Shown here one piece after another: positions 5,519-26,300 of a DNA stretch of 64,000 bases. The position numbers and the translations under genes were made by a program. This DNA is from Anaerolineae bacterium. Lineage in GTDB: Bacteria > Chloroflexota > Anaerolineae > B4-G1 > SLSP01. The notes beneath the pieces are model-generated. The model ran no database searches and was not told the DNA's origin. It saw nothing but the letters and a program-made list of their open reading frames with translations. Position 1 is the first letter of the stretch. Every line of letters begins with the position of its first letter. Location: the NCBI GenBank assembly GCA_049975525.1, contig JBNGCW010000011.1:45623-109622 (forward strand). Reading direction: 5' to 3'.

Positions 5519-6004
5519 GGAAGGAGGAGGCACGCTAACCGGTCCTCCGGCCCCCAGAGGGGCTCCCCGGCGGGGAGCCCGGGGCCTGCGTACCTCACCA
5601 CGCGTAAGATAGGGTCAAACGAGAAGAGATGACAAGAGGGCTAGCTGGGGATAACCTGCCGAAAACAGTGGATAACTCCACAACTTATCCACTGTTGACT
5701 CACCTGACTATATCTCAAGTGCAGGAATACCCGTTCGTAGTCAGGCACAGAACGCAGTGGAGTGCCATGCGCTGCTCTCTGACGCCACGCCACTTAAAAA
5801 CGCGACTCCGCTGAAGCTGCGTCGCCGACTACGGGCGGAAGGCTTGTCGTCAAGCGCGCAGACGTCAACCAACATGAAGCGACAAGGCCGGGAAGGGGCC
5901 GATGGGATGAGTTTTAGAGGAATCTGATCGTTATGAGTTATGTCAGTGGTGTCACTGTTGGGCCATAAAATTCTACCCTCCCAATATCACGGATTGAACA
6001 TCAG

Positions 6005-12574: not shown

Positions 12575-13570
12575 ATGAGTGATCTATCGACAACCTATAT
12601 GGGCCTGAACCTGAGAAATCCCATCGTTCCCTCTGCCTCCCCGCTCTCCCGCAACTTGGACGGCATCAAGCAGATGGAAGACGCCGGGGCCGGCGCCGTG
12701 GTCCTCTACTCGCTGTTCGAAGAGCAGATCGACCAGGAGGCCCAATTCCTTGACGAAATGATTGAAAGCACGAAGTATCGCTACGCCGAGATGATCGACC
12801 TCTTCCCACCTCAAGACATATACCGCCGCGACGAGCACGCGTACCTCGACCTGATCCGTCGGGCCAAGGAGAGCGTCGATATTCCCATCATCCCCAGCCT
12901 CAACGGCTACAGTCTGGGCGGCTGGTTGCGCTACGCTGCGCTTTGCGAGGAAGCCGGCGCCGACGGCCTGGAGCTCAACATCTATTATCTTCCCACCTCC
13001 CACCGCCTGACCGGCGCCCAGGTCGAAGCGCTGTACTTCGAACTGCTGCGCAACGTCAAACAACACGTCTCCATCCCCATCGCCGTGAAGATGAACCCTT
13101 TCTTCAGCTCTCTCCCCCACATCGCTACCCTGTTGGACCGCGCCGGCGCCGAGGCGCTGGTGTTCTTCAACCGCTTCTATCAGCCCGATCTGGATATTGA
13201 GGCCCTGCAAACTGTTCGCAAGTTGCACTTGAGCTCCTCAAAGGAGATGCTGTTGCCGTTGCGCTGGATCGCCATCCTCTACGGACGGCTCAACGCCTCC
13301 CTGGCGCTGAGCACCGGCGTGCACACCGTTGAGGACGTGGTCAAGGCGATCATGGCCGGTGCCGACGTCGCCAACGTCTGCTCGGTGCTCCTGCAGGAAG
13401 GCATCGATGCGTTGACCGAGCTGGTCACAGGCCTGGAAGCGTGGATGGACGCACACGAGTACGAGAACCCGGAGCAGATGCGCGGCCTCCTGAGCCATCA
13501 GAAAAGCCCCAACCCCACGGCCTTCGAGCGGGCTAACTACGTCCACCTGATCGGACAGAACAATGTCTGA
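12575..13570 (+). CDS. Dihydroorotate-dehydrogenase-like FMN-dependent TIM-barrel oxidoreductase
   Basis: N-terminus LNLRNPIVPSASPLS and overall pattern resemble the PyrD/DHPD family. A canonical PyrD catalytic motif could not be confirmed. ORF track start 12551 is an alternative. Confidence 0.65.
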   Translation: MSDLSTTYMGLNLRNPIVPSASPLSRNLDGIKQMEDAGAGAVVLYSLFEEQIDQEAQFLDEMIESTKYRYAEMIDLFPPQDIYRRDEHAYLDLIRRAKESVDIPIIPSLNGYSLGGWLRYAALCEEAGADGLELNIYYLPTSHRLTGAQVEALYFELLRNVKQHVSIPIAVKMNPFFSSLPHIATLLDRAGAEALVFFNRFYQPDLDIEALQTVRKLHLSSSKEMLLPLRWIAILYGRLNASLALSTGVHTVEDVVKAIMAGADVANVCSVLLQEGIDALTELVTGLEAWMDAHEYENPEQMRGLLSHQKSPNPTAFERANYVHLIGQNNV

Positions 13571-13650
13571 AAGTATGACTCACCTGAAAAAAGGGGGGAA
13601 AAATCGGCTTTGACGATACGTCTGAAAGCCGATTTGACAGGCAGGTATCT

Positions 13651-14217
13651 ATGAAGGACACTCTTTTCTACACCGGCACAGGCGACACAGGGACGACCAC
13701 TCGTCTGCAAGGTCGGAAGCGGCTCTCCAAAGCCGACGCGCTCCTGGAGGCCCTCGGCACCCTCGACGAGGCTACCTCCACCCTCGGCGTCGCCCGCGCG
13801 CAGGCCCTCTCCCCCCCAGTTCAACGGACGCTCCTGGAAAGTCAGCGGCGGCTTTACCGCCTGATGTCACACCTGTCGGCGGTTCCCGAAGCCCGCGCCA
13901 ACTATCCGGGACTCACCGGAGAGGATGTGATGTGGTTGGAGCAAGAGATCGCCCAGTTAGAAGCCAGGCTCCCTCCGCTGGAGGGATTTGTCCTGCCGGG
14001 GGACTCGCCGACCGGGGCTGCCTGTCACCTGGCCCGCGCTACCGTACGTCGAGCCGAACGACGGGTGGTCGTCCTCACAGATCGGGAAGCCAACATCGGC
14101 CCCGACAATCTCGCCTTCCTCAACCGTCTCTCGTCCTATCTCTTCGCCGCGGCCCTATATGAGGACCTGCAAGCAGGCCACACACCCACAGCAGCGCGGG
14201 CTCCGCAAGAGCATTGA
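13651..14217 (+). CDS. PduO-type ATP:cob(I)alamin adenosyltransferase
   Basis: N-terminal YTGTGDTGTT...EALGTLDE matches the PduO/MMAB family signature. Length 188 aa. Confidence 0.85.
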   Translation: MKDTLFYTGTGDTGTTTRLQGRKRLSKADALLEALGTLDEATSTLGVARAQALSPPVQRTLLESQRRLYRLMSHLSAVPEARANYPGLTGEDVMWLEQEIAQLEARLPPLEGFVLPGDSPTGAACHLARATVRRAERRVVVLTDREANIGPDNLAFLNRLSSYLFAAALYEDLQAGHTPTAARAPQEH

Positions 14218-14243
14218 GGATACCAAGGCCGCAAAAAAGGGGG

Positions 14244-14272
14244 TTGCAATTGTCTGAAAAGTTAGATATAAT
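14244..14272 (+). promoter_or_regulatory. Near-consensus sigma70 promoter TTGCAA-17-TATAAT upstream of the small peptide gene
   Basis: TTGCAA at 14244-14249, exactly 17-nt spacer, TATAAT at 14267-14272. Confidence 0.55.
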
Positions 14273-14327
14273 GGGTGGTATACAGTCGAGGGCCTGAAAA
14301 GCCGCTACTCCCAAAAAAGGAGGATGT

Positions 14328-14432
14328 ATGTACGAGGCGCCGGAAATCATCTATGAAGGCAAATTAGAAGTGCAGGCAGGCAGCCCTCTCGGAATACCGG
14401 AGGACCCCCTAGACCTGGATATGCCCGGCTAA
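14328..14432 (+). CDS. Small 34-aa peptide (MYEAPEIIYEGKLEVQAGSPLGIPEDPLDLDMPG), function unknown
   Basis: AAGGAGG RBS at 14317-14323, ATG at 14328, TAA at 14430. A dedicated promoter lies upstream and a GC hairpin (14491-14516) downstream. The peptide is below the ORF-track length cutoff. Confidence 0.5.
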   Translation: MYEAPEIIYEGKLEVQAGSPLGIPEDPLDLDMPG

Positions 14433-14490
14433 CGTTAAGAGAGGGCTTCAATCACTTCGGTGGCATTATTACCGTGGTGAACACGCAGAA

Positions 14491-14516
14491 GGGCGACTTT
14501 GCAGTCGCCCTTCTCT
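14491..14516 (+). terminator. GC-rich hairpin (GAAGGGCGAC-TTTGCA-GTCGCCCTTC) downstream of the small peptide gene
   Basis: Perfect 10-bp stem. No clear U-tract, so intrinsic termination is uncertain. Confidence 0.35.
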
Positions 14517-14920
14517 GCCTTAAGCGGTTCGTCGCTCTCTTCAAGAAAGCGCACGAGCCACCTGTGAAGATCTCACCGCCCTGGCAAACGCCCCCATGAC
14601 AGAAATCATGGTATAATCGGGAGTCGTTAAGGGTTGTCAAGCACTTGGATCAAAGGGCGACGAGAGGGTACCTCTCGCCGACCCGATCTTTTTGCCGCCG
14701 GGCGTTTCGTTTTACCGCAAAGTCTCCCCGGGAGAACGCCATATCTTCCAGGGCGGGCACTTTGTCACCTGGGCACCACACTTCAGAGGTCAAGCACATA
14801 CAGATTTGCAACTATTCGGGCGAAACGCGCTTTTTGCTACGGGAGGCGCATGCATAGAGCCGAACTCTAAAACGAAAAACGGGTGCTTCTCATCTTCTGG
14901 TCGCACAGTACCAATATATC

Positions 14921-15290
14921 CAGTGTTGACTCTGCTGAAAAAAGGTCCTAAAAATCGGATTTTTTTTCCGGAACTTGCCACTACATGTGGGAAAATTCGC
15001 GGTTGAAACCACTAGATATAGGGGATGTCTTGCTAAAAATCCGATTTTTTCAGTAGAGTCAGTGTTGACTCTACCAAGAGAAGCGGTAAAATCTCTAGCT
15101 TTGGACCTTTTTTTCAGCAGAGCGTTGGCTCTACTGAAATAACGCATAGAAATCGGATTTCTCCAAAACTCACCCCTACATGTGGGAGAATTCGCGGTCA
15201 AGATCAATAGATACAGGGGATGGCCGACTAGAAATCCGATTTTCCCCCTTTTTCAGTGGAGTCGGTGTTGACTGCCCTGAAAAAGGGGTG
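14921..15290. repeat. Two tandem MITE-like palindromic repeat units (CTGAAAAAAGG / AAATCGGATTT terminal inverted repeats; shared core CTACATGTGGGARAATTCGCGGT...ATAGGGGATG)
   Basis: Unit 1 is about 14933-15050 and unit 2 about 15122-15265. The aligned cores are about 80% identical, and both have inverted termini built on AAATCGGATTT. Confidence 0.6.
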
Positions 15291-15440
15291 AGCAGGGAGA
15301 AACGTGGGGACATGGCGTGAGGGTGTCGTGCACAAGCACGCCACATAGCATAGCACCCCTCCCTCCGCTGAAAAGTTCCTTTCAGCAGAGGCGGGGCTTA
15401 ATGCCAGGATCATCGCCCCCCGCCTGGAAGGAGGCTTATT

Positions 15441-18400
15441 GTGGGAAACAAACACGCTCGCTATGCCTGGATGGCGTTGGCTTTATCAGGCGCCATCGCA
15501 CTCCTCGGCCTGATCCAGACCGTCACCTGGGCCTCTCCTCCGGGGCCGCAGATCGAGTATCCACCGCTGCCGGAGCCCGATCCTGCCATGTCCCCCGAGC
15601 GCCTGGCCTCGCAAGTCGCGCTCTCCTCGCTGCCCGACCCCGCCGATCCCATACCGCTCCCCGAGCCCGCTTGGCGCATCGGCGTGATCACCGACGGCCT
15701 CTACGCCCTGAGCTACGCGACGTTGAACGCAGCAGGGGTGCCCGTCGCAGACGCCGACCCCGCTGCCTACCGCCTCTTCTGGCGCGGGCAGGAAGTCGCC
15801 CTGGACGCCAGCGACGTGGGCGACACCTTCGAGCCGGGCGAAGCCTTCTACTTCTACGGCGAGAAGTTCCACGGCTCGACCCAGGACGAGAAGTACACCG
15901 ACGAGAACGTCTACTGGCTGACCGTCGACGCGACCACGCCGGGCCTGCGCATGGCGACCCGCGACGTGACGCCGAATGGTCTTGGCACACCGGTCACCTG
16001 GTATACGGAGACACTGCACGCCGAGGAGAATCTCATCTGGTGGTCGCGTTGGTCGACCACACCGGGCACCGACGCCACGTGGTTCTGGGACGACGTGACG
16101 GCTTCCTCACCGGTCACGCGCAGCTACTCTGTTACGCTCTCCGACCTGGCTGCAGGGAGTCATGACGCCATGCTGATTGTGGAGTTGGCCGGACGGACCA
16201 CCAACGCCCATCGGGTCCGTTTTACGCTGAACGGCACCGTCGTGGGAGAGGCCACATGGTCCGGCGACGTGGGGCATGTGGCGACGCTCCCCTTCTCAGC
16301 AACCGCGCTGGTGGAAGGACAAAACACGCTTGATATGGCCATTCTCACCGACAGTGGAGCTCAGCGTATCTACTTGAACTGGTTCGAGATCCGGTACCCG
16401 CGAAAGATGGTATCTGTTGAGGGCGCTCTTGAATTCGGGGTTGAACTCTCCGGCACCGTTGCCGTCACGCTGACAGAATTCAGCACATCCACCCTACAGC
16501 TCTACGATGTGAGCGAGCCTCTCACCCCGACACGCTTGATCGGAGGGGAGATCACCGGATCCGGTGGCAACTATCAGTTGGCATTCCAGGATATGACCTC
16601 GACAGAGAAAATTTACCTGGCTACAGAGACGGACGTTGCCCGCTCGCCCGGCGATATCTCCTCATATACGCCATCCGCCGACTGGCTTAACCCCGGCGCA
16701 GGCGCCGATCTCATCGTCTTCGCTACATCAACCCACTTCACAGCCGTACAGCCCCTCATTGAACAGCGCCGTGCTCAGGGGATGCGAGTGCAGTTGGTCG
16801 ATGTAGCGGATGCGTATGCGCTGTTCAACGGCGGCATCGTGCACCCTGAAGCCATCCGGGCCTTCGTCACGTATGCGTACACGCATTGGCCGGGGCCCTC
16901 ACCGCAATATATCCTGCTTGTAGGCGACGCCAGTTTCAACCTCAAAGGCTACAACGAAGCGGCTTACGGCCCATGGACGCCACCCGTCATTCTCCCCTAT
17001 CTGGATTTCATCGATCCCGATCAGGGGGAGGTGCCCGTGGACGCCTATTTCGGCGACACCACCGGCGACGGCCTCCCCGAACTGGCGGTGGGACGCATAC
17101 CGGCTTACACCCCGGAAGACGTAGCGGGGTTCGTGAATAAAATCCTCGCGTATGAAAACCGCCCTCCGGCGGACTGGATGAAGCGGGCGCTCTTCGTCGC
17201 CGACGATGGAAAAACCTCCATTGAGGGATTCGCCTCAACGTTGAACCACCTGATGGCGGAGTACGTGCCCTCGACGCTGCTCACCCATACCGTCTACATT
17301 CAGGATTACTGTGGTCTCTCCGGCGCTTGCCCCGCGGCCACTGAGGCCTTGACCCAGACCTGGGGCCAGGAGGCTATCCTGCTCACCTATGCCGGACACG
17401 GGTCCATCCACCGTTGGGCCCACGAGCCACTGTTGCTCAACGAGCAGCTGGCCACGCTGCCCCCCATGGAAGGACTTCCCTTTATCATCTCCTTGGATTG
17501 TTGGGACGGCTATTGGCTCTTCCCCCCCATCTATCCTTCGCTGGGCAGTCAAGATGTGCGTTCCATTGGTGAATGGGCCACCACAGTGCTCACGGATCGA
17601 GGCGCCATAGGACTTTTCGGTCCGGCGGGGTTGGGTTATCTCTACATCGAGGATGACATGGCCGACGCGATGTACGACGCCATGTTCAACGGGGGGATTT
17701 TCCGCCTTGGAGATCTTACCCATCCGGCGCGTCGGACGGTCTCCAGCTCCTACCTGGCCCGTACCTACAGCCTCCTGGGTGATCCGACGTTGATGCTCTC
17801 CGTGTGGGACTCCCTGACGGCCACACCCTCCGGCGTCACCTTAACCGTCAATACACAGTTGACGCTCCCCGAGACCTTCGACGTCACCGGGACAACCCAT
17901 TATGGGGACGTGTTCACCATCACCCCCACCTGGACGGTCAACGACGGCACACTGAACGCCTGGGGTCTCTTCACCGCCCCCACTGAGGCGGGTTACGTGA
18001 CGTTGACGGCACACCTGGGACAGTTCTCTGTCCCCATCTCCATCCGAGTGCTGGGTGAGCCCGTCTCCATGACCGTGAGCCCGGACCCTCTGAAGATCGG
18101 TGCCGGTCTGACGGCCACCCTGCACGCCGAAGTCATAGATGCTTGGGGCAACATCCTCAACGAAACCCCAACGTGGAGCGCCGATGTGGGCGAGATCCAT
18201 CCAATGAAGGGCGTTTTCACCGCGCCGCTGCAGCCGACCCAAGGACACATTACCGCGACATTGGGCACGCTCGACGATGCGATAACCGTCGAGGTTCAAG
18301 CCCGCGAGCCCACCACCGTAAGCGTCACCCCCGCCTTGCTGCAGCTTCCCGTGGGAGCAACACAGCAGATGACGGCCACCGTCACCGACCGGTGGGGAAA

Positions 18401-18587
18401 TCCACTGCCGAACGCGACGGTACTATGGTCTACCGACGTCGGCGTGATCAATGCCCAGGGGGTATTCACCGCCGATTCAAAGCCAGGAGAAGGTTGGATT
18501 ACTGCTACCTCTCAAAGTGCCATCGGGCGGGCAGCGGTGACAGTCTATAGCTACAACATTTACCTTCCTTTAACAATACGCAACTAA
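15441..18587 (+). CDS. Secreted peptidase C25 (gingipain-like) with C-terminal Big_2/Ig-like domains
   Basis: GTG start after GGAAGGAGG RBS. Signal peptide present. Catalytic His in YAGHGS and Cys in SLDCWDG. Three Ig-like repeats follow. The protein ends ...YSYNIYLPLTIRN. Confidence 0.8.
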   Translation: MGNKHARYAWMALALSGAIALLGLIQTVTWASPPGPQIEYPPLPEPDPAMSPERLASQVALSSLPDPADPIPLPEPAWRIGVITDGLYALSYATLNAAGVPVADADPAAYRLFWRGQEVALDASDVGDTFEPGEAFYFYGEKFHGSTQDEKYTDENVYWLTVDATTPGLRMATRDVTPNGLGTPVTWYTETLHAEENLIWWSRWSTTPGTDATWFWDDVTASSPVTRSYSVTLSDLAAGSHDAMLIVELAGRTTNAHRVRFTLNGTVVGEATWSGDVGHVATLPFSATALVEGQNTLDMAILTDSGAQRIYLNWFEIRYPRKMVSVEGALEFGVELSGTVAVTLTEFSTSTLQLYDVSEPLTPTRLIGGEITGSGGNYQLAFQDMTSTEKIYLATETDVARSPGDISSYTPSADWLNPGAGADLIVFATSTHFTAVQPLIEQRRAQGMRVQLVDVADAYALFNGGIVHPEAIRAFVTYAYTHWPGPSPQYILLVGDASFNLKGYNEAAYGPWTPPVILPYLDFIDPDQGEVPVDAYFGDTTGDGLPELAVGRIPAYTPEDVAGFVNKILAYENRPPADWMKRALFVADDGKTSIEGFASTLNHLMAEYVPSTLLTHTVYIQDYCGLSGACPAATEALTQTWGQEAILLTYAGHGSIHRWAHEPLLLNEQLATLPPMEGLPFIISLDCWDGYWLFPPIYPSLGSQDVRSIGEWATTVLTDRGAIGLFGPAGLGYLYIEDDMADAMYDAMFNGGIFRLGDLTHPARRTVSSSYLARTYSLLGDPTLMLSVWDSLTATPSGVTLTVNTQLTLPETFDVTGTTHYGDVFTITPTWTVNDGTLNAWGLFTAPTEAGYVTLTAHLGQFSVPISIRVLGEPVSMTVSPDPLKIGAGLTATLHAEVIDAWGNILNETPTWSADVGEIHPMKGVFTAPLQPTQGHITATLGTLDDAITVEVQAREPTTVSVTPALLQLPVGATQQMTATVTDRWGNPLPNATVLWSTDVGVINAQGVFTADSKPGEGWITATSQSAIGRAAVTVYSYNIYLPLTIRN

Positions 18588-18590
18588 ACC

Positions 18591-20216
18591 GTGGATCTCA
18601 AAACAGCCTCCTGGTGGGACGCACTAGAGAAGCCGTGGCCCGGCACGCTGCACCTCCACGTGCGCGGGCGTAGCATGCTGCCTACCCTCCGCCCTGGCGA
18701 CGAGATCGTGGTGGAATCGGTCGCCCCCGAAGATCTCCGGCGGGGGGACTGGATCGTCGTCCGAGTCTCACAACAACTCCTGGTGCATCGTCTGCTTGAC
18801 TTCACACGCGAAGGAAGCCTGCTCACCAAAGGAGACGCGCAACGGGCTCCCGATCCTCCCTGTGCCCCCCAAGATGTGCTGGGGAAAGTCACCGCTTTGA
18901 AACGCGAGGGTAAAATAATACCGTTGCATCCTCAGAGCGCGAGTGAGAAAATCAAAACACTCTGGCATCTTATCCTGGCCAGAACCTGGTTGGGACTGAG
19001 GGGGATCGATCTGCTGATGTACAGCCTGCTGATCATCAGCCCACTCCTGTTGCCGATCCTCGTCCTCGCGTCCGTCGACCTGCTTTACTTTGAGGCAGAG
19101 GCACAGAGCAACCGGATTTACCTCACCTGGGAGACGGCCAGCGAGACCAATATGCTGGGCTTTTACGTCCAGCGCTCTCAAGAAGAGGATGCCGGATATC
19201 AACGTATCTCCGAGCTGATTCCGGCCGTGGGAGATATTGCCGGCGCTTTCTACGATTTTACCGATAGCGACATAAGCCGGGAGACGCTTTACTACTACAA
19301 ACTGGAGGCTGTGGAGACCGACAACAGCGCCGAGCTGCACGGACCGATCTCCGCCTGCCTGGGGTGTCCGACGCCAACGCCCACCCACACACCCACGCCT
19401 TCCGCAACGCCCACTTCCACCTCGACGCCGACCCCCTCCCCAAGCCCTACCGGGGAGAGCACCTCGGAGCCAGGGCAACCGACCTCCACTTTCACACCTA
19501 CACCAACGCCCGAACCCGGCGCGCCCACAGCCGTCCCTTCGGTTTACCTGCGCTTCTGGGCCGACGCCACCAGCCTCGACGCCGGTCAGTGCACCACGCT
19601 GCGCTGGCAGACGGATAACGCAGCCCGTGTCGAGCTCAACGGGGAAGGCGTGCCGGGCGGCTACAGCGAGGAGCGGGTCTGTCCCTGCACCGATCAGACC
19701 TACACGCTGCGCGCCGTCGGTCATGACGGGGACATCGAAGAAAGTACCATCTCACTAGACATCAGTGGCGCCTGCACACCCGTGCCGCCCGGCAGCACCG
19801 CCACACCGACGCGCACGCCGCGCCCGACCCAGACCTCCACCTCACGCCCCCCGCGCACCCACGCCGCCGCGACGGCGACGCCGCGACCGACCGAAACGCC
19901 CCGTGACGCGCAGACCGCCGCGACGCCGACGCCGTCGCCCACCGCCCATGCCGACTCCCCCCTGTCAACGCCGCAAACCGTCACGACCACGTCAACCCCG
20001 TCCCCCGAGCTCTCATCTTCGTCCACGCTCACCATCGCCGGGGGTCTGCCGACGCGCGCCCCCGCCCCCATCGGTCAGAGTGACATCCAGAACGTGAACA
20101 CACGTTCCGGCCGCGCGCCCGGCTGGCTCATCATCACGCTCATCAGTGGCACCGGCTTGATCGGCGCGGGCGGCTGGGGCATCTGGCGCGCCTGGAAGGA
20201 GAGAGAGGGCGCATGA
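18591..20216 (+). CDS. SipW-like ER/archaeal-type signal peptidase (S26B) fused to TM segments, FN3/Ig-like domains, Pro/Thr linkers and a C-terminal TM anchor
   Basis: GRSMLPTL...GDEIVV...GDWIVV...VHRLL matches the Ser/His-dyad SipW/Sec11 pattern, with no catalytic Lys box. The C-terminus is hydrophobic with a basic tail. The GTG start lies 3 nt after the upstream stop. Confidence 0.6.
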   Translation: MDLKTASWWDALEKPWPGTLHLHVRGRSMLPTLRPGDEIVVESVAPEDLRRGDWIVVRVSQQLLVHRLLDFTREGSLLTKGDAQRAPDPPCAPQDVLGKVTALKREGKIIPLHPQSASEKIKTLWHLILARTWLGLRGIDLLMYSLLIISPLLLPILVLASVDLLYFEAEAQSNRIYLTWETASETNMLGFYVQRSQEEDAGYQRISELIPAVGDIAGAFYDFTDSDISRETLYYYKLEAVETDNSAELHGPISACLGCPTPTPTHTPTPSATPTSTSTPTPSPSPTGESTSEPGQPTSTFTPTPTPEPGAPTAVPSVYLRFWADATSLDAGQCTTLRWQTDNAARVELNGEGVPGGYSEERVCPCTDQTYTLRAVGHDGDIEESTISLDISGACTPVPPGSTATPTRTPRPTQTSTSRPPRTHAAATATPRPTETPRDAQTAATPTPSPTAHADSPLSTPQTVTTTSTPSPELSSSSTLTIAGGLPTRAPAPIGQSDIQNVNTRSGRAPGWLIITLISGTGLIGAGGWGIWRAWKEREGA

Positions 20217-22213
20217 GACGCGGGCTCGTCCTGCTCCTGGTCATCTTGATCAGCGGCTGCACTGCCCAGGCCGCCGACCCGCCGACCGCCTCTCCGTCAG
20301 GCGTCTGGTTCGTGGAGCTGGCGCAGACAGGCGCAACCTGGCTTTCGCCGCAGACGCTGCGTGACCTGGGCCTGGACACCGACGCCGCGCCCGCGCTGCG
20401 CCTCAGCATGGGCGCGCGCGATCTGCCCTATCTCCCCCTGCCCGCCCGCCGGGGCTGGGGCGTGCTCTTCTTCGCTCCCAACGGCACAACGCGCTACACT
20501 AAACGCACCGTCGTCCGGCTGGAACCCGGCGTCGCAGGCGACCGCATGCCCTCCCAACCCGCCGAGACCACCGCCTCACCGGCGCCCGCCCTTGCGACGG
20601 TCACCTGGGAGCAGGACATCCGCTATCTCCCGCAGGCCACCGCCGACGTGCCCTGGCTCTGGGAACCCATCTACACGCCCGGCGCTTTGGAGCAGACCGT
20701 CGTGCTCACCGACGCGCAGCCCGGCCCCATCACCGCGATGGTGCGCCTCTGGAGCCACACTGGCTTCCAGCCGCAACCCGACCACCGCGCCGTGCTCGCC
20801 TGGGAGGGCACCCCCGTCGGAGAGTGGACGTGGAGCGGGCAGGGCATGCAGACGCTCACCGCCACCTGGCCTCTCGAAGAGAGCGGCGGCGAGCACACCC
20901 TGACCCTGCAGACCCCGGCCCTGGTCGAGGACAAAGTCGCCGTCGTCTGGATCGACGGCTGGGAGATCACCTACCCGCGCCGGGTGACCCAGGGCGTCTA
21001 CACGGCAGCCGGTGACGCGCTGCGCGCGTCGCCCCAGGCCCGCGTACTCGACGTGACCGACCCCTTCGCGCCGCTGGATCTCGGCGCCGTCCCGGAAAAC
21101 GGCGTCATCGGCACGCTGCGCGGGCACCGCTACTGGATCGGCTCGCCGGAGCAGGCTCAGACGCCCGTGTCCCTGCGTCCCGCCGCGCTACTGGATACCG
21201 CCGCCCTCAGCGCGACGGAGTACCTGGTCATCGCGCCGCCCGCCTTCCGGCCGCCGATTCAACCTCTGGTCGATCACAGGAAGGCTTCCGGCCTCAACGT
21301 GGCCGTGGTCTCACCCCAGTCCATCTACGACACCTTGGGAACCGGGCAACCCGACCCCGCGTCCCTGCGCGCCTTGATCCAGACGCTACCCGACCTGCGC
21401 TACGCACTGCTGGTCGGCGACGCGACCACAGAGCCCTGGGGCTACGACGGCGAGGACGGCGCCCTGCGCGTCGTCACGCCCTTCACGCGCACCACCGTGC
21501 TCGGCGAGACGCCCGCCGACGCCCTCCTGGGCACAGACGCGACCGGACATCCGCGCGTGGCCGTGGGTCGCTTCCCCGCCGCAAGCGTCGCCGAGGTCGA
21601 GGCCATGGTGGCGAAGACACTGGCCTGGGAAGCGAACGCCGCCGAGGCCTCATCCGTGCTCCTCAACGACGACGAACAGGAGTTCGTCAGCGCGGTGGAT
21701 GCGCTGACCGCCCTGCTCCCAGAGGGAGATGATGCGCCGCGCCTGGACGCCGGCGACCCGACGTGCCGCGACACGCTGCTGAGCACGTTGAGCGACGGGC
21801 CTCGCGTGCTCACCTACGTCGGACACGGCAGCTTGCGCCAGCTGGGCGATGAGGGTGTGCTGCTGATCGAGGATGGGGCTATGTGGGACGATCCCTCGGT
21901 CGTCGTGGCATGGACCTGTCTCGCGGCACACTTCACCCACACGCGCCAGCCCTCCATGGCCGAGGTCTGGCTGGCGCAGCCGCAGGGTGGCGTGGCGGCG
22001 TTTCTTGGTCCCGTCGGCGAGACGACGACGTTTGAACAAAAACCCTATGCCGCCGCTTTCTACGCGGCGCTGCAGGAGACGCCCCGGCTGGGCGACGCCT
22101 GGCTGACCGCGCTCCAGACCCCAGGCTCGCGCGACGTGCGCTGGGGCTTCACCATCCTGGGCGATCCAGCCTTGCACCTCCCCGGCACGTCGGCGCCCGA
22201 GCGATCCCCATAA
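20213..22213 (+). CDS. Peptidase C25 family lipoprotein (paralog of 15441..18587)
   Basis: The ATGA start overlaps the upstream stop. Lipobox LLLVILISGC. His in YVGHGS and Cys in AWTCLAAHF. The N-terminal domain is paralogous to the first C25 protein. Confidence 0.75.
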   Translation: MRRGLVLLLVILISGCTAQAADPPTASPSGVWFVELAQTGATWLSPQTLRDLGLDTDAAPALRLSMGARDLPYLPLPARRGWGVLFFAPNGTTRYTKRTVVRLEPGVAGDRMPSQPAETTASPAPALATVTWEQDIRYLPQATADVPWLWEPIYTPGALEQTVVLTDAQPGPITAMVRLWSHTGFQPQPDHRAVLAWEGTPVGEWTWSGQGMQTLTATWPLEESGGEHTLTLQTPALVEDKVAVVWIDGWEITYPRRVTQGVYTAAGDALRASPQARVLDVTDPFAPLDLGAVPENGVIGTLRGHRYWIGSPEQAQTPVSLRPAALLDTAALSATEYLVIAPPAFRPPIQPLVDHRKASGLNVAVVSPQSIYDTLGTGQPDPASLRALIQTLPDLRYALLVGDATTEPWGYDGEDGALRVVTPFTRTTVLGETPADALLGTDATGHPRVAVGRFPAASVAEVEAMVAKTLAWEANAAEASSVLLNDDEQEFVSAVDALTALLPEGDDAPRLDAGDPTCRDTLLSTLSDGPRVLTYVGHGSLRQLGDEGVLLIEDGAMWDDPSVVVAWTCLAAHFTHTRQPSMAEVWLAQPQGGVAAFLGPVGETTTFEQKPYAAAFYAALQETPRLGDAWLTALQTPGSRDVRWGFTILGDPALHLPGTSAPERSP

Positions 22214-22229
22214 CAACAGAAAGGTTATC

Positions 22230-23012
22230 ATGAACGAACAACTCTCCGGTGAAGAGCGACAAGTCGCGCCGCACACAGGCCCCACCATTGACGGCGCGCC
22301 CGTCTCATACGTGGTCACCGCTGCGAGCATCGTACTGGCCCTGGCCTTCGTCCCACTCTCCATCGTGCTCACTTCGGGGAAGAGCTTCCCCCTGAGCCAA
22401 AGCGTCTACCCGCTGATGGGCTGGCTGCTGGGACCGGTCGCCGGCGCGGTGGCCAACGCCGTAGGCGCGCTGGTGGGGGTGATGCTGGCGCCCCACACGA
22501 CGACGATGCCCGTCGCCACGGTGCTGGGCGCAGCCTTGGGCGGGTTAGCCGCCGGCGCCATGACGGTCGAAAAGGAGCGCCGTTGGTGGTGGCTACCCCT
22601 TTCCCTTCTCTTCATGGGGGCTTACGGCCTGTACGGCGTGCGCGCCATCGTCCAGAACGGCGCCGCCTGGTATGCCGTGCTCCTCGGCTCTTTCATCAAC
22701 TGGTCGGCGCTGCTGCTCTTCGTCCTGCCGACGCGCCGATGGATCGGACGCCGGCTGCAATCCAGGGATTTAAGGCGCCTCGGCGCGGCGCTCTTCCTGG
22801 GCACCTGGAGCGCCGCCGGCCTGACGCATCTGAGCACGGCCACCGTGGTTTACTTCTTCTCGAACTGGCCCAACGAAGTGTGGCTGGCGATCGCACCGCT
22901 GGCGCCTTTCGAACACCTGATCCGCGCCTTTGTAGGCACCGTCATCGGCGTCGGTGTGATCAGCGGCCTGCGGGCCACCAGCCTGGTCAAAGCGTTGCAC
23001 GCCGTCTACTGA
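22230..23012 (+). CDS. Polytopic membrane protein, unknown function
   Basis: About 6-7 TM helices. Lies directly downstream of the C25 module. Confidence 0.5.
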   Translation: MNEQLSGEERQVAPHTGPTIDGAPVSYVVTAASIVLALAFVPLSIVLTSGKSFPLSQSVYPLMGWLLGPVAGAVANAVGALVGVMLAPHTTTMPVATVLGAALGGLAAGAMTVEKERRWWWLPLSLLFMGAYGLYGVRAIVQNGAAWYAVLLGSFINWSALLLFVLPTRRWIGRRLQSRDLRRLGAALFLGTWSAAGLTHLSTATVVYFFSNWPNEVWLAIAPLAPFEHLIRAFVGTVIGVGVISGLRATSLVKALHAVY

Positions 23013-23015
23013 TCC

Positions 23016-23747
23016 ATGTTTACTGCCGCCGTGATGACCGACGCGCACGCTAACCTACCTGCCCTGGAGGCAGCCCTGGACGTCATCTGCCGGATAGGCT
23101 ACGACGTCCTCTATCACACCGGCGACGCCATCGGGATCGGGCCTCATCCCCGCGAGACGTTGGAGTTGCTGCTGGAGACCCCGCGCGCCCACCTGCTGAT
23201 GGGCAATCACGAATTGCGGTATCTCAACGGGATGCCAAGGGAGCAGCCGGATGCCATGACGGATCTGGAGTTCCAGCACGTACGTTGGATGCAGCGTGTA
23301 CTGGGGCCGGACTACCGCACTGCGGTGCGGAGGTTTCCCCGTCGGATCGAGCGTACGATCTACGGGCGACGGCTCTGCTTCCTACACTACGCGCCGGGCG
23401 GCGACCGCTGGGACCTGCATCCGGTGGTCGAGCATCCCACCCCGGCGCAACTGGATGCCATGTTCGCCGGGTGCCACGCGGACCTGGTCTTCTACGGGCA
23501 CCACCACCCGCCGGCCGATCACACGGGCCGCGCACGGTACATCAATCCCGGCGCGCTGGGCTGTTCGGTCGACGGACGGGCGCGTTTCGTCCTGCTGCAC
23601 GTGGCGGAAGACGGAACCTACAGGCTGGAGAAGCGCACGGTGCTCTACAACCGCCAGGCCGTCCTGCAGGATCTGGAACGCCGCCGGGTGCCGGGGCAGG
23701 CCTTCATCTCCGAGGCTTTCTTTGGATCCAACAAGCGACCCAACTAA
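23016..23747 (+). CDS. Metallophosphoesterase (calcineurin-like)
   Basis: DAHAN...GD...GNHE metal-binding motifs are present. Confidence 0.8.
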   Translation: MFTAAVMTDAHANLPALEAALDVICRIGYDVLYHTGDAIGIGPHPRETLELLLETPRAHLLMGNHELRYLNGMPREQPDAMTDLEFQHVRWMQRVLGPDYRTAVRRFPRRIERTIYGRRLCFLHYAPGGDRWDLHPVVEHPTPAQLDAMFAGCHADLVFYGHHHPPADHTGRARYINPGALGCSVDGRARFVLLHVAEDGTYRLEKRTVLYNRQAVLQDLERRRVPGQAFISEAFFGSNKRPN

Positions 23748-23780
23748 AAAAGATGGAAAATTTGAATCTACTTAAAATAA

Positions 23781-23882
23781 CTTTTTCAGTAGAGAAAGGG
23801 ATACTATATGTTGTGGTTAGACTGCGTCCAACCACAACATATACCTCATATTTCTCCGGCTGACCCTTTTTTCAGGGCAGCC
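23781..23882. repeat. About 100-bp palindromic intergenic element, copy 1 (13-bp perfect inverted repeat ATATGTTGTGGTT/AACCACAACATAT)
   Basis: About 88% identical to 28548-28650. Internal and terminal inverted repeats. Non-coding: an indel between copies breaks any reading frame. Confidence 0.65.
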
Positions 23883-23945
23883 AAATTTGAAATTACGCCA
23901 TCCAACGCTCCCCCCTCTATCCATTCGATCACGCCTGACGGAACA

Positions 23946-26300
23946 CTACGTTTCTTCTCGCCCCAAGGCACAGTGGAGGCGCCAGCGGCTGGCCTTCTTG
24001 CGCAGCTGCCGACCCAGCAGAACGCGCTCCAGCGTCGCGGGGGCCTCGTGCAACCGCCGACCGGTAGCGTGAGCGATGGCGTTGAGCAGCGCAGGCGCCG
24101 TGGGGATCATCACCGGTTCCGCCAGGTTCTTCGCGCCAAAGGGCCCGTGCTCCCAGCGCGTCTCCACAAAGTGCGCTTCGATTTCCGGCGCATCCACCGA
24201 GGTAGGGATGAGGTAGGTATCGTAGTTGACATCTCTGGGGTAGCCGTGGTCAAAGGTGAACTCCTCCAGCAGCCCGTAGCCCAATCCCTGGACCACCCCC
24301 CCGTACATCTGTCCGTAGGCGCCGATGGGGAAGAGCAGCTGTCCGCCGTCGTGAGCAGCCCAGATCCCTAACACCTGCACCTTGCCCGTCCCCAGATCGA
24401 CCTCCACCTCCGCCACCTGCGCACCGAAGGAGTAGGTGCTGTAGGGTTTCCCCTGTCCGGTCTGCATGTCCCAGTGAATCTCAGGCATGTCCCAACGCCC
24501 CGTGGTGTGCAGCTCGAGGCCCAGGGCGCGTGCGTGCGCGGTCACGTCCTCAAAGGTCACAGGCTCCTCCGACGGACCGATGAATTGCTCACCGTGACGG
24601 ACAATCTGCTCCGGCTGACAACCGAGCAGGTCGGCGGCGACGTTGTGCAGCAATCGGCGCAGCTGCTCAGCGGCGACGCGCGTGGCGTTCCCCCCGAGGA
24701 TCGAGGCACGGCTGGCGACCGTAGGCCCGGAGTCACGGGCCGTCTCCGTGTCGGGACGGGGCATGTGGATACGCGCCACGTCCACGCCCAGCACCTCCGC
24801 CGCGACCAGGGGAAAGACTGTACGGGAGCCCTGTCCGTAGTCCGTGAGGCCCGATGTAAGGGTGAGGGAGTTGTCGGGGTTGACGGTCAACGTGCTCACG
24901 GCGAAGTCGGCGCCTTCGGCACCCAGGGAAGTGCCGTGGTGAATGCAAGCGACGCCGATCCCTCGACGGCGTTCGGCGTCGGACGGCTGTTGGGCGTACG
25001 CCGCCCGCTTGCGGTCCCAATCAGAGGCCGCCCGGACCCACTCCAACGCCTGGATCAGTCCCACCTCGAAATCCAGGACGTTCCCTGTAGCCGCGCGGTC
25101 GCCCTCACGCAGCGCGTTGCGCAGGCGGAAGTCGAGAGGATCCATCCCCAGCTGCTCCGCCAGCTCGTCGACGGCCCGCTCTATGATGAGGGCGGCGTCG
25201 GTGTTACCGAAGCCACGGAAGGCTCCGCTCCAGCCGTTGTTGGTGTAAACTGTGTAAACGTCGATGTGGGCGGCCTTGTAACGGTAGGCTCCGGCTGCAT
25301 GCATGGCCGCCCGCCAACCGATAAAAGGGCTGGCGGCAGAATAAGCACCGTTATCCATCAGCAGCTCGACCTTGGCCGCCTGCAGCCTGCCGTCGCGAGT
25401 CGCTGCCAGGCGCACCGTCCCCCGTGTCGGCTCGCGCTTGTAGGAGGCGATCATGGACTCCTCGCGGGTGACGATCAACCGAACGGGGCGGCCCGCTTTG
25501 AGAGCCAGGGCCGCCGCCTGTCCCGACGTCTCGTAGCAGATGTCATCTTTGCCGCCGAAGGCGCCGCCCACAAAGGCCGAGACAACGCGTACTTTCTCCT
25601 GGGGCAAGCCCAACACGCGCATCAGCGTGTTACGGTTGACGAAGGGAGATTGGTCATCGGCGTAGACGATGACTCCCCCTTCCGGCGTAGGCAGAGCGAC
25701 CGCGCCCTCCGGCTCGATATAGGCGTGCTCCTGGCGGGGCGTGGTGAAGTGCCCCTCGTAGACGACATCGGCCTCGGCAAAGAGAGGGTCAGGTTCGCCG
25801 TTGCGCACAATGTTGTGGGCGGCGAGATTGCCACGCGGCAACTCCTCCGCATCCCAGCCTGTGGGGCCCACCAGAGGAGCGTCGGGCTCCAACGCCGCCT
25901 CCGCATCAAAGACGCCGGGTAACGGTTCCAGCTCCAGGACGATGGCGCGCAGCCCGGCCTCGGCGGCCTCCGGAGTCTCGGCGGCCACGGCGGCGATGGC
26001 CTCGCCCACGTAGCGCACCCGCTCGTGAGCCAAGATGTAGTTGTCGGCGATGGGGAAGCCGTAGCTGCCGTGATCCACAAAATCCTCCGAGGTGATGGCG
26101 GCGATGACACCGGGCACCTCCAAGGCGGGCGTCACGTCCAACTTAACGATGCGCGCGTGGGGCAGCGGGCTGCGCAACACCCTGGCGTGCAACATGTTGG
26201 GGAAGTAGTAATCGCCCACGAAACGCGCGCGCCCGGTCACTTTTTCCACCGCGTCCAGGCGGCGGCTGTGCTTACCGATGTAGCGGGTTTCGTCCATCAT
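23946..26300 (-). CDS. Xanthine dehydrogenase/aldehyde oxidase family molybdopterin-binding large subunit
   Basis: The N-terminus RYIGKHSRRLDAVEKVTGRARFVGDY is typical of the CoxL/XdhB family. AGGAGG RBS. The ATGA start overlaps the upstream gene's stop. The true start is the internal Met of the 809-aa ORF. Confidence 0.85.
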   Translation of the reverse strand: MMDETRYIGKHSRRLDAVEKVTGRARFVGDYYFPNMLHARVLRSPLPHARIVKLDVTPALEVPGVIAAITSEDFVDHGSYGFPIADNYILAHERVRYVGEAIAAVAAETPEAAEAGLRAIVLELEPLPGVFDAEAALEPDAPLVGPTGWDAEELPRGNLAAHNIVRNGEPDPLFAEADVVYEGHFTTPRQEHAYIEPEGAVALPTPEGGVIVYADDQSPFVNRNTLMRVLGLPQEKVRVVSAFVGGAFGGKDDICYETSGQAAALALKAGRPVRLIVTREESMIASYKREPTRGTVRLAATRDGRLQAAKVELLMDNGAYSAASPFIGWRAAMHAAGAYRYKAAHIDVYTVYTNNGWSGAFRGFGNTDAALIIERAVDELAEQLGMDPLDFRLRNALREGDRAATGNVLDFEVGLIQALEWVRAASDWDRKRAAYAQQPSDAERRRGIGVACIHHGTSLGAEGADFAVSTLTVNPDNSLTLTSGLTDYGQGSRTVFPLVAAEVLGVDVARIHMPRPDTETARDSGPTVASRASILGGNATRVAAEQLRRLLHNVAADLLGCQPEQIVRHGEQFIGPSEEPVTFEDVTAHARALGLELHTTGRWDMPEIHWDMQTGQGKPYSTYSFGAQVAEVEVDLGTGKVQVLGIWAAHDGGQLLFPIGAYGQMYGGVVQGLGYGLLEEFTFDHGYPRDVNYDTYLIPTSVDAPEIEAHFVETRWEHGPFGAKNLAEPVMIPTAPALLNAIAHATGRRLHEAPATLERVLLGRQLRKKASRWRLHCALGREET

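Follow-up and report, generated by a model that had tools for sequence, protein, structure and literature searches.

A PorU-like peptidase pair with a candidate peptide-processing partner in an uncultured Anaerolineae bacterium

The window analysed here is a stretch of 64,000 nucleotides from an Anaerolineae bacterium (GenBank assembly GCA_049975525.1, contig JBNGCW010000011.1, positions 45,623 to 109,622, forward strand). It contains three tightly linked protease genes on the plus strand, which we call A, B and C. Gene A (15441-18587, 1048 aa) has a GTG start with GGAAGGAGG 7 nt upstream. Gene B (18591-20216, 541 aa) follows after a 3-nt gap (TAA-acc-GTG), and A and B share one reading frame. 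Gene C (20213-22213, 666 aa) is joined to B by an ATGA overlap. A fourth gene, D (22230-23012, 260 aa), lies behind C. The preliminary description had reported this arrangement, and the observation is confirmed, apart from two details that are corrected below.

A and C both belong to the C25 family of cysteine peptidases (Pfam Peptidase_C25, 9.8e-66 for A and 1.1e-51 for C). A is a predicted secreted protein with a signal peptide, N-terminal beta domains, a C25 domain at aa 434-786 with H653 (nt 17397) and C687 (nt 17499), and C-terminal Ig-like repeats. However, the Big_1/Big_2 hits in the C-terminus of A are below cutoff. C is a lipoprotein with the lipobox LISGC16 (Cys16 at nt 20258) and the catalytic pair H538 (nt 21824) and C569 (nt 21917). 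Both proteins are PorU-like: A matches NF033707 over residues 78-788 and also matches PorU in the PDB, and the predicted structure of C has PorU (6za2) as its best PDB match (E 5e-24, against 1e-13 for gingipains). NCBI annotates the genes only generically.

B carries the motifs GRS28M...VH66R...TKGD and has no Lys general base. In profile searches it hits Peptidase_S24 (25.4 bits against a cutoff of 23.3) and falls just short of TIGR02228 sigpep_I_arch (49.3 against 51.85). The S26B-like Ser/His peptidase domain spans aa ~15-113 (S28 at nt 18672, H66 at nt 18786). It is followed by a signal-peptide-like TM (aa ~136-160, ending VLA|SV), an FN3-like domain (aa 162-256), a PT-rich linker, a second beta domain (aa ~318-393), a second PT-rich linker, a C-terminal TM and a basic tail. 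An AlphaFold2 model of residues 1-265 (pLDDT 84) shows a beta peptidase domain, a long helix (the TM) and an FN3 domain. B has two membrane segments, and not only the C-terminal anchor described before. Furthermore, it lacks the N-terminal anchor that every SipW/Sec11 enzyme has.

D, the 6-TM protein, is a weak match to an ECF S-component, and in two relatives the EcfA/EcfT genes follow it. We take it to be an ordinary ECF transporter component that is not part of the module.

Upstream of the three genes lies a small peptide gene (14328-14432, plus strand) that is not annotated in the NCBI record and is absent from the preliminary description. It encodes 34 aa, MYEAPEIIYEGKLEVQAGSPLGIPEDPLDLDMPG, and is preceded by an AAGGAGG ribosome-binding site. 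About 55 nt upstream there is a sigma-70-like promoter (14244-14272, plus strand; TTGCAA-17-TATAAT), which matches 10 of 12 consensus positions and is a consensus match only. An HMM finds the peptide in 17 related loci, usually just upstream of C25-A. Y2, P5, I7, E10, E14, A17 and G18 are invariant, and the codon-position differences are 788/611/1836. There are 533 database relatives, of which the best 120 have E<3e-9. The leader resembles a lasso-type RRE-binding motif (YxxPxI; Y2, P5 and I7) and is followed by the invariant Ala-Gly.

Downstream of the peptide gene there is a perfect 12-bp hairpin (14487-14514, plus strand), in a region with an MFE of -46.6 kcal/mol (z = -4.2 against shuffles). 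No T-tract follows, so it is not a canonical terminator, but it may be an attenuator or a stabiliser.

C25-A ends in a YLP-box-type ultrashort C-terminal motif (18555-18584, plus strand; NIYLPLTIRN, then stop), which the preliminary description also missed. NCBIfam lists this motif as a putative sorting signal with no named enzyme. Of 74 motif occurrences in ORFs of at least 100 aa, 29 lie within 4 residues of the stop. C25-A orthologues of the related loci L001, L006, L021 and L062 (numbers with L denote related loci throughout) pass NF050076 and/or NF053834. However, the window's own variant, with Thr in place of Val/Ile, did not score with these models, and C25-A lacks the YLP-box in one subgroup (L004, L007, L009, L010, L012, L014 and L015). 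The window also encodes a 1461-aa beta-helix surface protein (41780-46165, minus strand) with choice-of-anchor Q/T domains, a signal peptide and a YLP-box end (SVFLPLVSRP, then stop). It is a candidate client of the same sorting signal and is not part of the operon.

To find out whether the three genes belong together, we examined their order and catalytic residues in related genomes, the two points on which the preliminary description had staked its proposal. A, B and C occur in that order in every sufficiently long related locus, down to about 30% identity, and order and catalytic residues are conserved in about 25 Anaerolineae, Thermoflexia and Anaerolineaceae genomes. S28 and H66 of B are conserved, as is the GHG...LDC motif of A, and H538 and C569 of C are invariant in 23 sequences. 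The His/Cys pair is invariant in both C25 proteins.

The related loci also show where the peptidase domain of B is likely to act. B has no N-terminal hydrophobic segment, Lys/Arg cluster before TM1 and after TM2, and acidic residues follow TM1. TM1 ends in AxA|AVTLVSF, like the cleavable signal peptides of the stand-alone FN3 proteins. The peptidase domain is thus predicted to be cytoplasmic. In L022-L029, the Anaerolineaceae form of the cassette, the peptidase is a separate soluble protein of 136-171 aa without a TM, followed by the peptide chaperone PqqD (Pfam 5e-15) and then the FN3 gene. Its nucleophile is Ser or Cys and the His is kept.

Other relatives of this domain are fused or adjacent to RiPP-type cytoplasmic enzymes. 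The relative P0290 is a fusion of ScmC (HprK-like) and S24 next to a radical SAM gene. The relative P0032 is an S24 domain with a C-terminal GNAT-like region next to NTP_transf_5, although the GNAT-like region was identified by eye from an RxxGxG-type motif and Pfam records only a faint Peptidase_S24 hit. L037 has C25-A, a soluble S26 and then a gene that looks NTP_transf_5-like by eye.

Genes for proteins with C-terminal sorting-type signals cluster around the triad. Proteins carrying YLP signals or NAVTL signals ('GPNAVTL + TM + RRRR') flank it in L001, L004, L022-28, L043, L062, L068, L070 and L074/75. However, the clustering of YLP-box genes is only mildly above the background density in these loci. 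The YLP-box proteins have Sec signal peptides, so only the extracytoplasmic C25 enzymes of the cassette could reach the motif.

To explain these observations, we propose that the triad is the conserved core of a so far undescribed cassette of Anaerolineae and Thermoflexia (Chloroflexota), which probably matures cell-surface proteins. In this view its universal parts are a small acidic peptide gene, C25-A, an S26-like peptidase, an FN3/PT-rich membrane protein and C25-C, and the work is split across the membrane. On the cytoplasmic side, the Ser/His domain of B would not be a signal peptidase but a member of a soluble, RiPP-associated clade. It would most likely remove the lasso-type leader of the 34-aa peptide, cutting at or next to Ala17-Gly18, and would stand in for the B2 protease of split-B lasso systems. 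In related genomes it is accompanied by PqqD, an HprK-like ScmC protein and an NTP_transf_5 protein. The -3/-1 residues of the peptide, Val/Thr and Ala, fit S24/S26 specificity: LexA cuts at Ala-Gly, and signal peptidase I follows the AxA rule. Furthermore, the peptide lies directly after PqqD in L072/73.

On the outer side, the two PorU-like enzymes with intact His/Cys dyads, one lipid-anchored (C) and one secreted and itself ending in a YLP-box (A), would act as endopeptidases or transpeptidases on Sec-exported surface proteins. The likeliest clients are proteins ending in the YLP-box and the neighbouring proteins that end in 'GPNAVTL + TM + RRRR'. B would join the two sides physically, with a peptidase head inside and an FN3 domain with a PT-rich stalk, probably O-glycosylated, outside.

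This explanation remains tentative. Our analysis establishes the gene structure, the conservation of order, the catalytic residues, the PorU-like fold, the predicted topology, the existence and conservation of the peptide, and the strong C-terminal positional bias of the YLP motif, whereas catalysis, every pairing of an enzyme with a substrate and the coupling across the membrane are inferred. Some findings also speak against it. There is no PqqD within the 64-kb window, and 3 of the 6 peptide paralogues examined are not next to a triad or an S26 gene. No exporter for the peptide is evident, so its link to the extracellular enzymes is unexplained. A and C also score far below the PorU equivalog cutoff.

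Alternatively, the whole cassette could be a RiPP-like peptide pathway. The small peptide would be matured in the cytoplasm by S26, with PqqD, the HprK-like protein and NTP_transf_5 where present, then exported and trimmed or activated outside by the two C25 proteases, as LanP or the Phr-processing proteases do. It would act as a signal or an antibiotic, with the FN3 domains (of B, the anti-sigma factor and the stand-alone copies) as its receptors, and surface proteins would not be substrates. The peptide is indeed the most constant partner of the triad. An ECF sigma factor and an anti-sigma factor carrying the same FN3 domain lie between the peptide gene and C25-A in L007, L009, L012, L014, L062 and L068, and the full cassettes have the gene set of phosphorylated lasso clusters except for B2 and the cyclase. 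However, we consider this scenario unlikely. The cassette has no exporter, the peptide has no signal peptide, and PorU-like multidomain enzymes, one of them lipid-anchored, are unusual leader peptidases. Neither the YLP-box on C25-A nor the surrounding surface-protein genes are explained.

Less likely still is an envelope-signalling or regulated-proteolysis device. Here the extracellular FN3 domains would sense unassembled C-termini or a ligand, the C25 enzymes would act as site-1 proteases on FN3 membrane proteins, including the anti-sigma factor, and the cytoplasmic head of B would cleave a regulatory peptide. Three paralogous TM-FN3-TM proteins do carry different cytoplasmic heads (none, an anti-sigma domain or an S26 peptidase), and sigma and anti-sigma genes lie inside the cassette in several lineages. 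However, these genes are absent from the window and from the Anaerolineaceae form of the cassette, and nothing shows that the FN3 proteins are cleaved.

The interpretation given in the preliminary description is only partly supported. A role in surface-protein processing is plausible. It is doubtful, however, that B is a dedicated SipW/Sec11-type signal peptidase, acting on the outer face of the membrane to remove signal peptides from special surface or matrix proteins while the C25 enzymes remove C-terminal signals. B has the S26B motifs (SM.PT, VHR, TKGD), its best PDB matches are SEC11A/C, it is a near-threshold match to TIGR02228, and TM1 carries an AxA site. Yet B has no N-terminal anchor or signal peptide, and its stand-alone orthologues have no TM and sit next to cytoplasmic PqqD. 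The positive-inside rule and homology with the FN3 proteins, whose FN3 domain follows a cleavable signal peptide, place the peptidase domain in the cytoplasm. The SipW equivalog scores only 16.6 against a cutoff of 190.

Least likely, A and C are ordinary nutritional or degradative exoproteases and B is an unrelated membrane protein in the same operon: although C25 enzymes include broad-specificity proteases (the gingipains), this does not fit a gene order conserved down to about 30% identity across classes, translational coupling, a lipid anchor on one enzyme, a PorU-like rather than gingipain-like architecture, and an association with the peptide and the S26 peptidase that persists even in rearranged loci such as L037.

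Parts of the cassette resemble known systems. B shares its catalytic motifs, with a Ser/His dyad in place of Ser/Lys, with the Sec11/SipW (S26B) signal peptidases. It differs from them in its missing N-terminal anchor and predicted cytoplasmic catalytic domain, in its soluble stand-alone orthologues, some of which use Cys as the nucleophile, and in its PqqD, HprK-like and NTP_transf_5 genomic partners.

The second comparison is with split-B lasso-peptide maturation with kinase (K) and nucleotidyltransferase (N) tailoring, for example the bsf cluster (PMC10368454) and the paeninodin type (PMC8498205). If the core starts at S19, the precursor has Y, P and a hydrophobic residue (I) at -17, -14 and -12, which is the lasso rule stated in PMC10368454. 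A PqqD-type RRE (B1), an HPr-kinase-like protein and an NTP_transf_5 protein are present in the full cassettes. However, no B2 transglutaminase-type protease and no Asn-synthetase-like cyclase was seen in the gene tables of the loci selected by the peptide and by B (L062-L075). No Asp/Glu is conserved at core positions 7-9, so the product cannot be a lasso. An S26-like peptidase takes the place of the protease, and the cassette is embedded in surface-protein genes.

The YLP-box itself is known from NCBIfam (NF050076 and NF053834). C25-A orthologues and neighbouring secreted proteins end in [VIF][YF]LPL[VIL]x[RK] plus 0-3 residues and pass these models, and the carriers include 'choice-of-anchor' domain proteins. 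These models only label substrates. No NCBIfam model claims A, B or C as the cognate enzyme, and we found no paper that mentions the motif. The link to the C25 pair is a proposal made here.

Sortase with LPXTG and the other dedicated C-terminal sorting systems (exosortase/PEP-CTERM, archaeosortase/PGF-CTERM, rhombosortase/GlyGly-CTERM) use an unrelated enzyme family. The motif differs and matches no model above cutoff, and no 'GPNAVTL...TM...RRRR' protein lies next to the triad in the window itself. In related loci such proteins lie upstream of the triad and give weak hits to LPXTG-type anchor models. The shared principle is a dedicated peptidase encoded beside clients that carry a short motif, a TM and a basic tail.

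Finally, A and C can be compared with PorU, the C-terminal signal peptidase and sortase of the Bacteroidota type IX secretion system (PDB 6za2; PMC4560394). The scores are far below the PorU equivalog cutoff (228 and 123 bits against 420), and no T9SS CTD domain was detected. The host is a Chloroflexota bacterium, whereas T9SS is described only in Bacteroidetes (PMC5445135). The enzymes come as a pair, one of them a lipoprotein, the candidate signal is 8-10 residues long and not an 80-residue domain, and the partners are an S26-like protein and a small peptide instead of PorV, PorQ and PorZ. Nevertheless, PorU is the best hit for A and C by profile, by sequence and by fold. It belongs to family C25, has the same His/Cys dyad spacing and shares the architecture of N-terminal beta-sandwich domains followed by the catalytic domain. 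PorU carries the sorting signal of its own system, as C25-A carries a YLP-box, and it is encoded with its clients and acts on C-terminal signals of surface proteins.

The window has about 62% G+C, and the four open reading frames lie where the preliminary description placed them: C25-A at 15441-18587, B at 18591-20216, C25-C at 20213-22213 and D at 22230-23012. In NCBI the same proteins, from a 110-kb contig of an Anaerolineae MAG, are annotated only as "C25 family cysteine peptidase" and "S24 family peptidase". C25-A (A below) is preceded by a GGAAGGAGG ribosome-binding site and has a Sec-type signal peptide, whereas C25-C (C below) has a lipobox (LISGC16). The B/C junction is an ATGA overlap. 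The A/B junction (18585-18593) is unusual, since the two genes share a reading frame and are separated only by TAA ACC, with B starting at GTG. We rejected stop-codon read-through or a split gene as unlikely, because other loci have gaps of 75-320 nt between the genes and a fusion would give an impossible topology. Pfam and NCBIfam confirm two C25 domains and an S24/S26 domain. Upstream lie housekeeping genes (PFOR, a DHODH-like gene and cob(I)alamin adenosyltransferase). Downstream lie a metallophosphoesterase gene and a convergent xanthine-dehydrogenase-like operon. The unit is therefore bounded at about 14.2 kb and 22.2 kb.

To understand whether the three genes belong together, we examined their conservation in related genomes, a test that had been set in advance. 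A word-index search with the N-terminal half of B returned only 32 relatives, all from Anaerolineae or Chloroflexota metagenomes, and their contigs show C25, B and C25 in that order. A scan of GTDB species representatives gave 57 loci (numbered with the prefix L, as are the loci retrieved later). Mapping by tblastn shows A, B and C in the same order in every locus long enough to hold them, and truncated contigs show the expected part. These loci come from Anaerolineae, Thermoflexia, Anaerolineaceae and one bin labelled "Chloroflexia", at identities down to about 30%. Four more instances came from independent look-ups. Hence, the observation of a coupled C25, S26-like and C25 gene trio stands, and the trio is co-conserved.

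The six-transmembrane protein D, which had been described as following the trio, is not part of the module. D (within 22230-23747) is a weak match to an ECF-transporter S component. It is kept only in the closest relatives, where EcfA and EcfT follow it, as in L005 and L062. In the window a metallophosphoesterase follows instead, so that the S component is orphaned in this genome region.

Both A and C belong to peptidase family C25 (gingipain/PorU). Against Pfam PF01364 (cutoff 23), A scores 222.9 bits over profile positions 11-374 of 374 and C scores 176.7 bits over positions 1-374 of 374. The family has a catalytic His (GHG) and a Cys about 33 residues downstream. A has H653 and C687, a spacing of 34, and C has H538 and C569, a spacing of 31. 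The His aligns with the His of Kgp and PorU. The His and a Cys 31-34 residues downstream are conserved in the orthologues, and H538 and C569 are invariant in a 23-sequence alignment of C that reaches down to 28% identity. A matches the NCBIfam PorU model NF033707 over residues 78-788 (E 1e-67) and also matches PDB PorU 6za2. An AlphaFold2 model of C (pLDDT 87.8, pTM 0.86) has 6za2 as its best PDB match (E 4.8e-24, TMq 0.60 over 766 columns), whereas gingipains match only the catalytic domain, at about 1e-13. Both proteins are thus PorU-like in architecture.

The middle gene was previously read as a SipW-type signal peptidase, and this reading is not supported by its topology or its context. 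The motifs are of the Sec11/SipW Ser/His type (S28-M-x-P-T, V-H66-R and T-K-G-D): S28, M29, P31, H66, R67, T79 and G81 are invariant in 12 sequences, and SEC11A/C are the best PDB sequence hits. However, B of the window scores 49.3 on TIGR02228 (cutoff 51.85) and 16.6 on the SipW model NF046067 (cutoff 190). The stand-alone orthologue of L028 reaches 55.2 on TIGR02228 but only 29 on the SipW model. Signal peptidases of this type have an N-terminal membrane anchor that places the catalytic domain on the outer side. In B the 26 residues before Ser28 are hydrophilic, and the maximum hydropathy in the first 30 residues is at most 0.65 (15-residue window). The first hydrophobic segment (TM1) comes after the domain, at about residues 136-160, with Lys/Arg before it and acidic residues after it. 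The C-terminal transmembrane segment is followed by 3-6 basic residues in the eight homologues analysed. In the window's own B this segment fell below the hydropathy threshold, and the tail, RAWKEREGA, was read directly. TM1 ends in AxA|AVTLVSF, the same junction that follows the cleavable signal peptide of stand-alone FN3/PT-rich/TM proteins. The FN3 part is therefore predicted to be outside and the peptidase domain inside. An AlphaFold2 model of B (pLDDT 84) agrees with this, showing a beta domain, a long helix and an FN3 domain. A Foldseek search of the PDB with this model returned only FN3 hits, which masked the peptidase domain, so that the assignment of the peptidase fold rests on sequence profiles.

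The genomic context of the peptidase domain points in the same direction. In the Anaerolineaceae form of the cassette (L022-L029), B is split into three genes. The first is a 136-171-aa peptidase with no transmembrane segment, the second is a PqqD protein (Pfam 5e-15), and the third is the FN3/PT/TM protein with its own signal peptide. The nucleophile of the stand-alone peptidase is Cys (GNCM) in L023, L025, L026 and L029 (genes at about 9900-10450), whereas L022, L027, L028 and all fused B proteins have Ser (G[RKS]SM). The His is retained, making this a natural Ser/Cys swap within one orthologous group. An exhaustive HMMER search shows that the nearest non-B relatives are soluble-looking proteins of 150-220 aa. 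One relative, P0290 (L076, 1659-2885), is a fusion of an HprK-like (ScmC) domain and S24 next to a radical SAM gene. Another, P0032 (L069, 495-1268), is an S24 domain with a C-terminal region that looks GNAT-like by eye, next to NTP_transf_5. In L037 (16350-17568) a soluble S26-like gene follows a YLP-box C25-A and precedes a gene that looks NTP_transf_5-like by eye. We regard these as Rosetta-stone-type links to RiPP-style peptide maturation. The clade therefore appears to be a cytoplasmic, RiPP-associated branch of the S26B fold.

The preliminary description missed a gene. The 1.2-kb gap upstream of A holds a 34-codon open reading frame at 14328-14432, with an AAGGAGG site and a sigma-70-like promoter. 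An HMM finds the peptide in 17 related loci, and it is also present in the divergent Anaerolineaceae group. It usually lies immediately upstream of C25-A or is separated from it by an ECF sigma/anti-sigma pair. Y2, P5, I7, E10, E14, A17 and G18 are invariant. Nucleotide differences concentrate at third codon positions (788/611/1836). The large database holds 533 relatives, of which the best 120 have E<3e-9. All are unannotated and 30-57 aa long, with the consensus YExPDIIYEGELEVQAGSPvGvPEWDELxEEW. The gene is not annotated by NCBI, and no NCBIfam model hits it.

A perfect 12-bp hairpin (AGAAGGGCGACU/AGUCGCCCUUCU, 14487-14514) lies about 55 nt after the stop codon of the peptide gene. The region has z = -4.2 against shuffles, and no T-tract follows. 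The hairpin resembles the attenuator or stabiliser hairpins often seen after RiPP precursor genes. The 1-kb spacer between the peptide gene and C25-A is filled with repeats (14900-15300): two 86-nt direct repeats (14963-15048 and 15158-15243, 79% identical), 33-nt and 18-nt repeat families, and several inverted repeats. These may be regulatory or MITE-like. A second promoter-like site lies at 15065-15092. An Rfam scan of 13000-24500 gave no matches. In several lineages an ECF sigma factor and an anti-sigma factor, whose extracellular part is the same FN3-like domain as in B, are inserted between the peptide gene and C25-A (L007 5225-6499, L062 5858-7047 and L068 5641-6977). Both are absent from the window.

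If the core starts at S19, then Y, P and I of the peptide fall at -17, -14 and -12, which is the lasso-leader rule, and Ala at -2 has been reported among predicted lasso precursors (PMC10368454). The full cassettes (L062, L068 and L074/75) carry the accessory genes of phosphorylated lasso clusters: PqqD/B1, an HPr-kinase-like ScmC protein and NTP_transf_5. In L072/73 the peptide gene directly follows FN3-ScmC-PqqD, with no triad nearby. By tblastn, no PqqD or ScmC homologue was found in the 64-kb window. We rejected the possibility that the peptide is a true lasso peptide, because neither a B2 cysteine protease nor an Asn-synthetase-like cyclase appears in any full cassette, and no acidic residue is conserved at core positions 7-9. 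The resemblance of QAGSP to RAGP could also suggest a SecM-like arrest peptide. Against this, the peptide has no N-terminal export signal, and adjacency to PqqD argues that it is a bound substrate. From these observations we infer that the S26-like domain of B is the leader peptidase of this peptide, cutting at or next to the invariant Ala-Gly. Such a site fits the preferences of clan SF peptidases, since LexA cuts at Ala-Gly and signal peptidase I follows the AxA rule.

A ends in NIYLPLTIRN. Across all fetched loci, 29 of 74 matches to [..][LIV]P[LIVM]..[RK] in open reading frames of at least 100 aa lie within 4 residues of the stop. NCBIfam holds two "ultrashort_CTERM" models, NF050076 and NF053834 (cutoffs 15 and 10 bits), for a "YLP-box putative sorting motif". 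C25-A of L001, L006, L021 and L062 passes both models, and C25-A of L028 passes NF053834 only. The C-terminus of A in the window fits the pattern and its position but returned no score, and one subgroup of C25-A lacks the YLP-box. No NCBIfam model names A, B or C as the enzyme for this motif. YLP-like strings also occur at nonterminal positions: C25-A of L004 has an internal insertion (...SFIYLPLVFNGGG..., at about 7550-7600), and a truncated B homologue (P0016) continues after its FN3 domain with ...SIYLPLVFRD.... These unexplained strings may be assembly or frameshift artefacts, or remnants of recombination at the motif.

The proteins that carry the YLP-box have Sec signal peptides and include "choice-of-anchor" domain proteins. 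One of them lies in the window at 41780-46165 on the minus strand, 23 kb from the triad. It is a 1461-aa secreted beta-helix protein with choice-of-anchor Q/T, NosD-like and Ig-like domains that ends in SVFLPLVSRP, and it scores 11.3 bits against the cutoff of 15. Other carriers lie near the triad: an S8 protease (L004, L070), a Glyco_hydro_cc protein and a choice-of-anchor-Z protein (L022-28), and a beta-propeller protein (L043). Carriers also lie near the peptide paralogues that are not linked to a triad (L063-67).

A second conserved C-terminal signal, GP[NT]A[VI]TL..[FL].A followed by a transmembrane segment and RRRR, marks small secreted, LTD and GEVED proteins encoded just upstream of the triad (L001 6460-7227, L004 6211-6867, L062 7428-9713, L068 13608-14987, L070 4044-6399, and L074/75, in L075 at 4866-7695). 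Its motif resembles the first beta-strand (AAVTLVSFEA) of the FN3-like domain of B. No NCBIfam model matches this signal above cutoff, and only weak hits to LPXTG-type tails were obtained. Because both signals end up outside the cell, the only enzymes in the cassette that could act on them are the two C25 proteins, a pairing that is inferred.

Downstream genes in several lineages encode DUF4012, LPG_synthase_TM, GT2, TMEM260/PMT_2-type O-mannosyltransferases and Wzy_C. This fits glycosylation of the PT-rich stalks. The same FN3-like domain occurs on a stand-alone membrane protein, on the anti-sigma factor and on B, which suggests a shared extracellular docking or sensing module with different cytoplasmic heads.

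The earlier proposal of a surface-protein processing apparatus is only partly supported: it is plausible for the C25 pair, but the reading of the middle gene as a SipW-like signal peptidase is not supported. The most economical model is a two-compartment system. In this view, the S26-like head of B matures a conserved peptide with a putative lasso-type leader in the cytoplasm, A and C carry out extracytoplasmic PorU-like processing of YLP-box and/or NAVTL-anchored proteins, and B bridges the two. The gene structure and the co-conservation of the trio are established by the analysis, whereas the membrane topology is predicted, and the cleavage of the peptide by B, the action of A and C on either signal and the coupling through B are inferred. 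Alternatively, the cassette could be a pure RiPP pathway in which the C25 enzymes act as extracellular maturases. A regulated-proteolysis signalling device is a further rival.

How Chloroflexota, which are abundant filamentous bacteria in sludge, sediments and hot springs, attach and mature their surface proteins is essentially unknown, and the cassette offers concrete candidate enzymes for a motif that NCBI curators have catalogued as a putative sorting signal without assigning it an enzyme. Beyond this, our analysis uncovers a large family of unannotated small peptides (more than 500 members) with putative lasso-type leaders, a predicted cytoplasmic branch of the signal-peptidase (S26B) fold that appears to have been recruited as a RiPP-type leader peptidase, and a membrane protein that would physically join the two processes. 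Literature searches for the YLP-box, SynChlorMet, C25 in Chloroflexi or Anaerolineae, and S26 with PqqD returned nothing relevant, and we could not find the combination described anywhere.

A bolder reading, which we consider unlikely but cannot exclude, is that the cassette is a previously unrecognised protein-sorting system of Chloroflexota, analogous in rank to sortase, exosortase, archaeosortase and PorU. A lipid-anchored and a secreted PorU-like C25 transpeptidase would recognise the ultrashort YLP-box, and possibly also the GPNAVTL-TM-basic signal. Their action would be coupled through the S26-FN3 transmembrane protein to a ribosomal peptide with a lasso-type leader, which would serve as acceptor, cofactor or checkpoint for surface attachment. 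If true, this would be the first link between RiPP-style peptide maturation and protein sorting.

The closest comparison for the C25 pair remains PorU, a C-terminal signal peptidase with a sortase-like transpeptidase mechanism (PMC4560394). A and C are not the PorU of a type IX secretion system (T9SS): on the PorU equivalog model they score 228.5 and 123.4 bits against a cutoff of 420, and T9SS is described only in Bacteroidetes (PMC5445135). No model of the T9SS C-terminal domain (CTD; Por_Secre_tail) hits A, C or the neighbouring proteins, and no T9SS genes were seen in the gene tables returned for related loci. The parts of the cassette belong to known families, and the PorU-like pair is found outside the Bacteroidota and outside any type IX secretion context.
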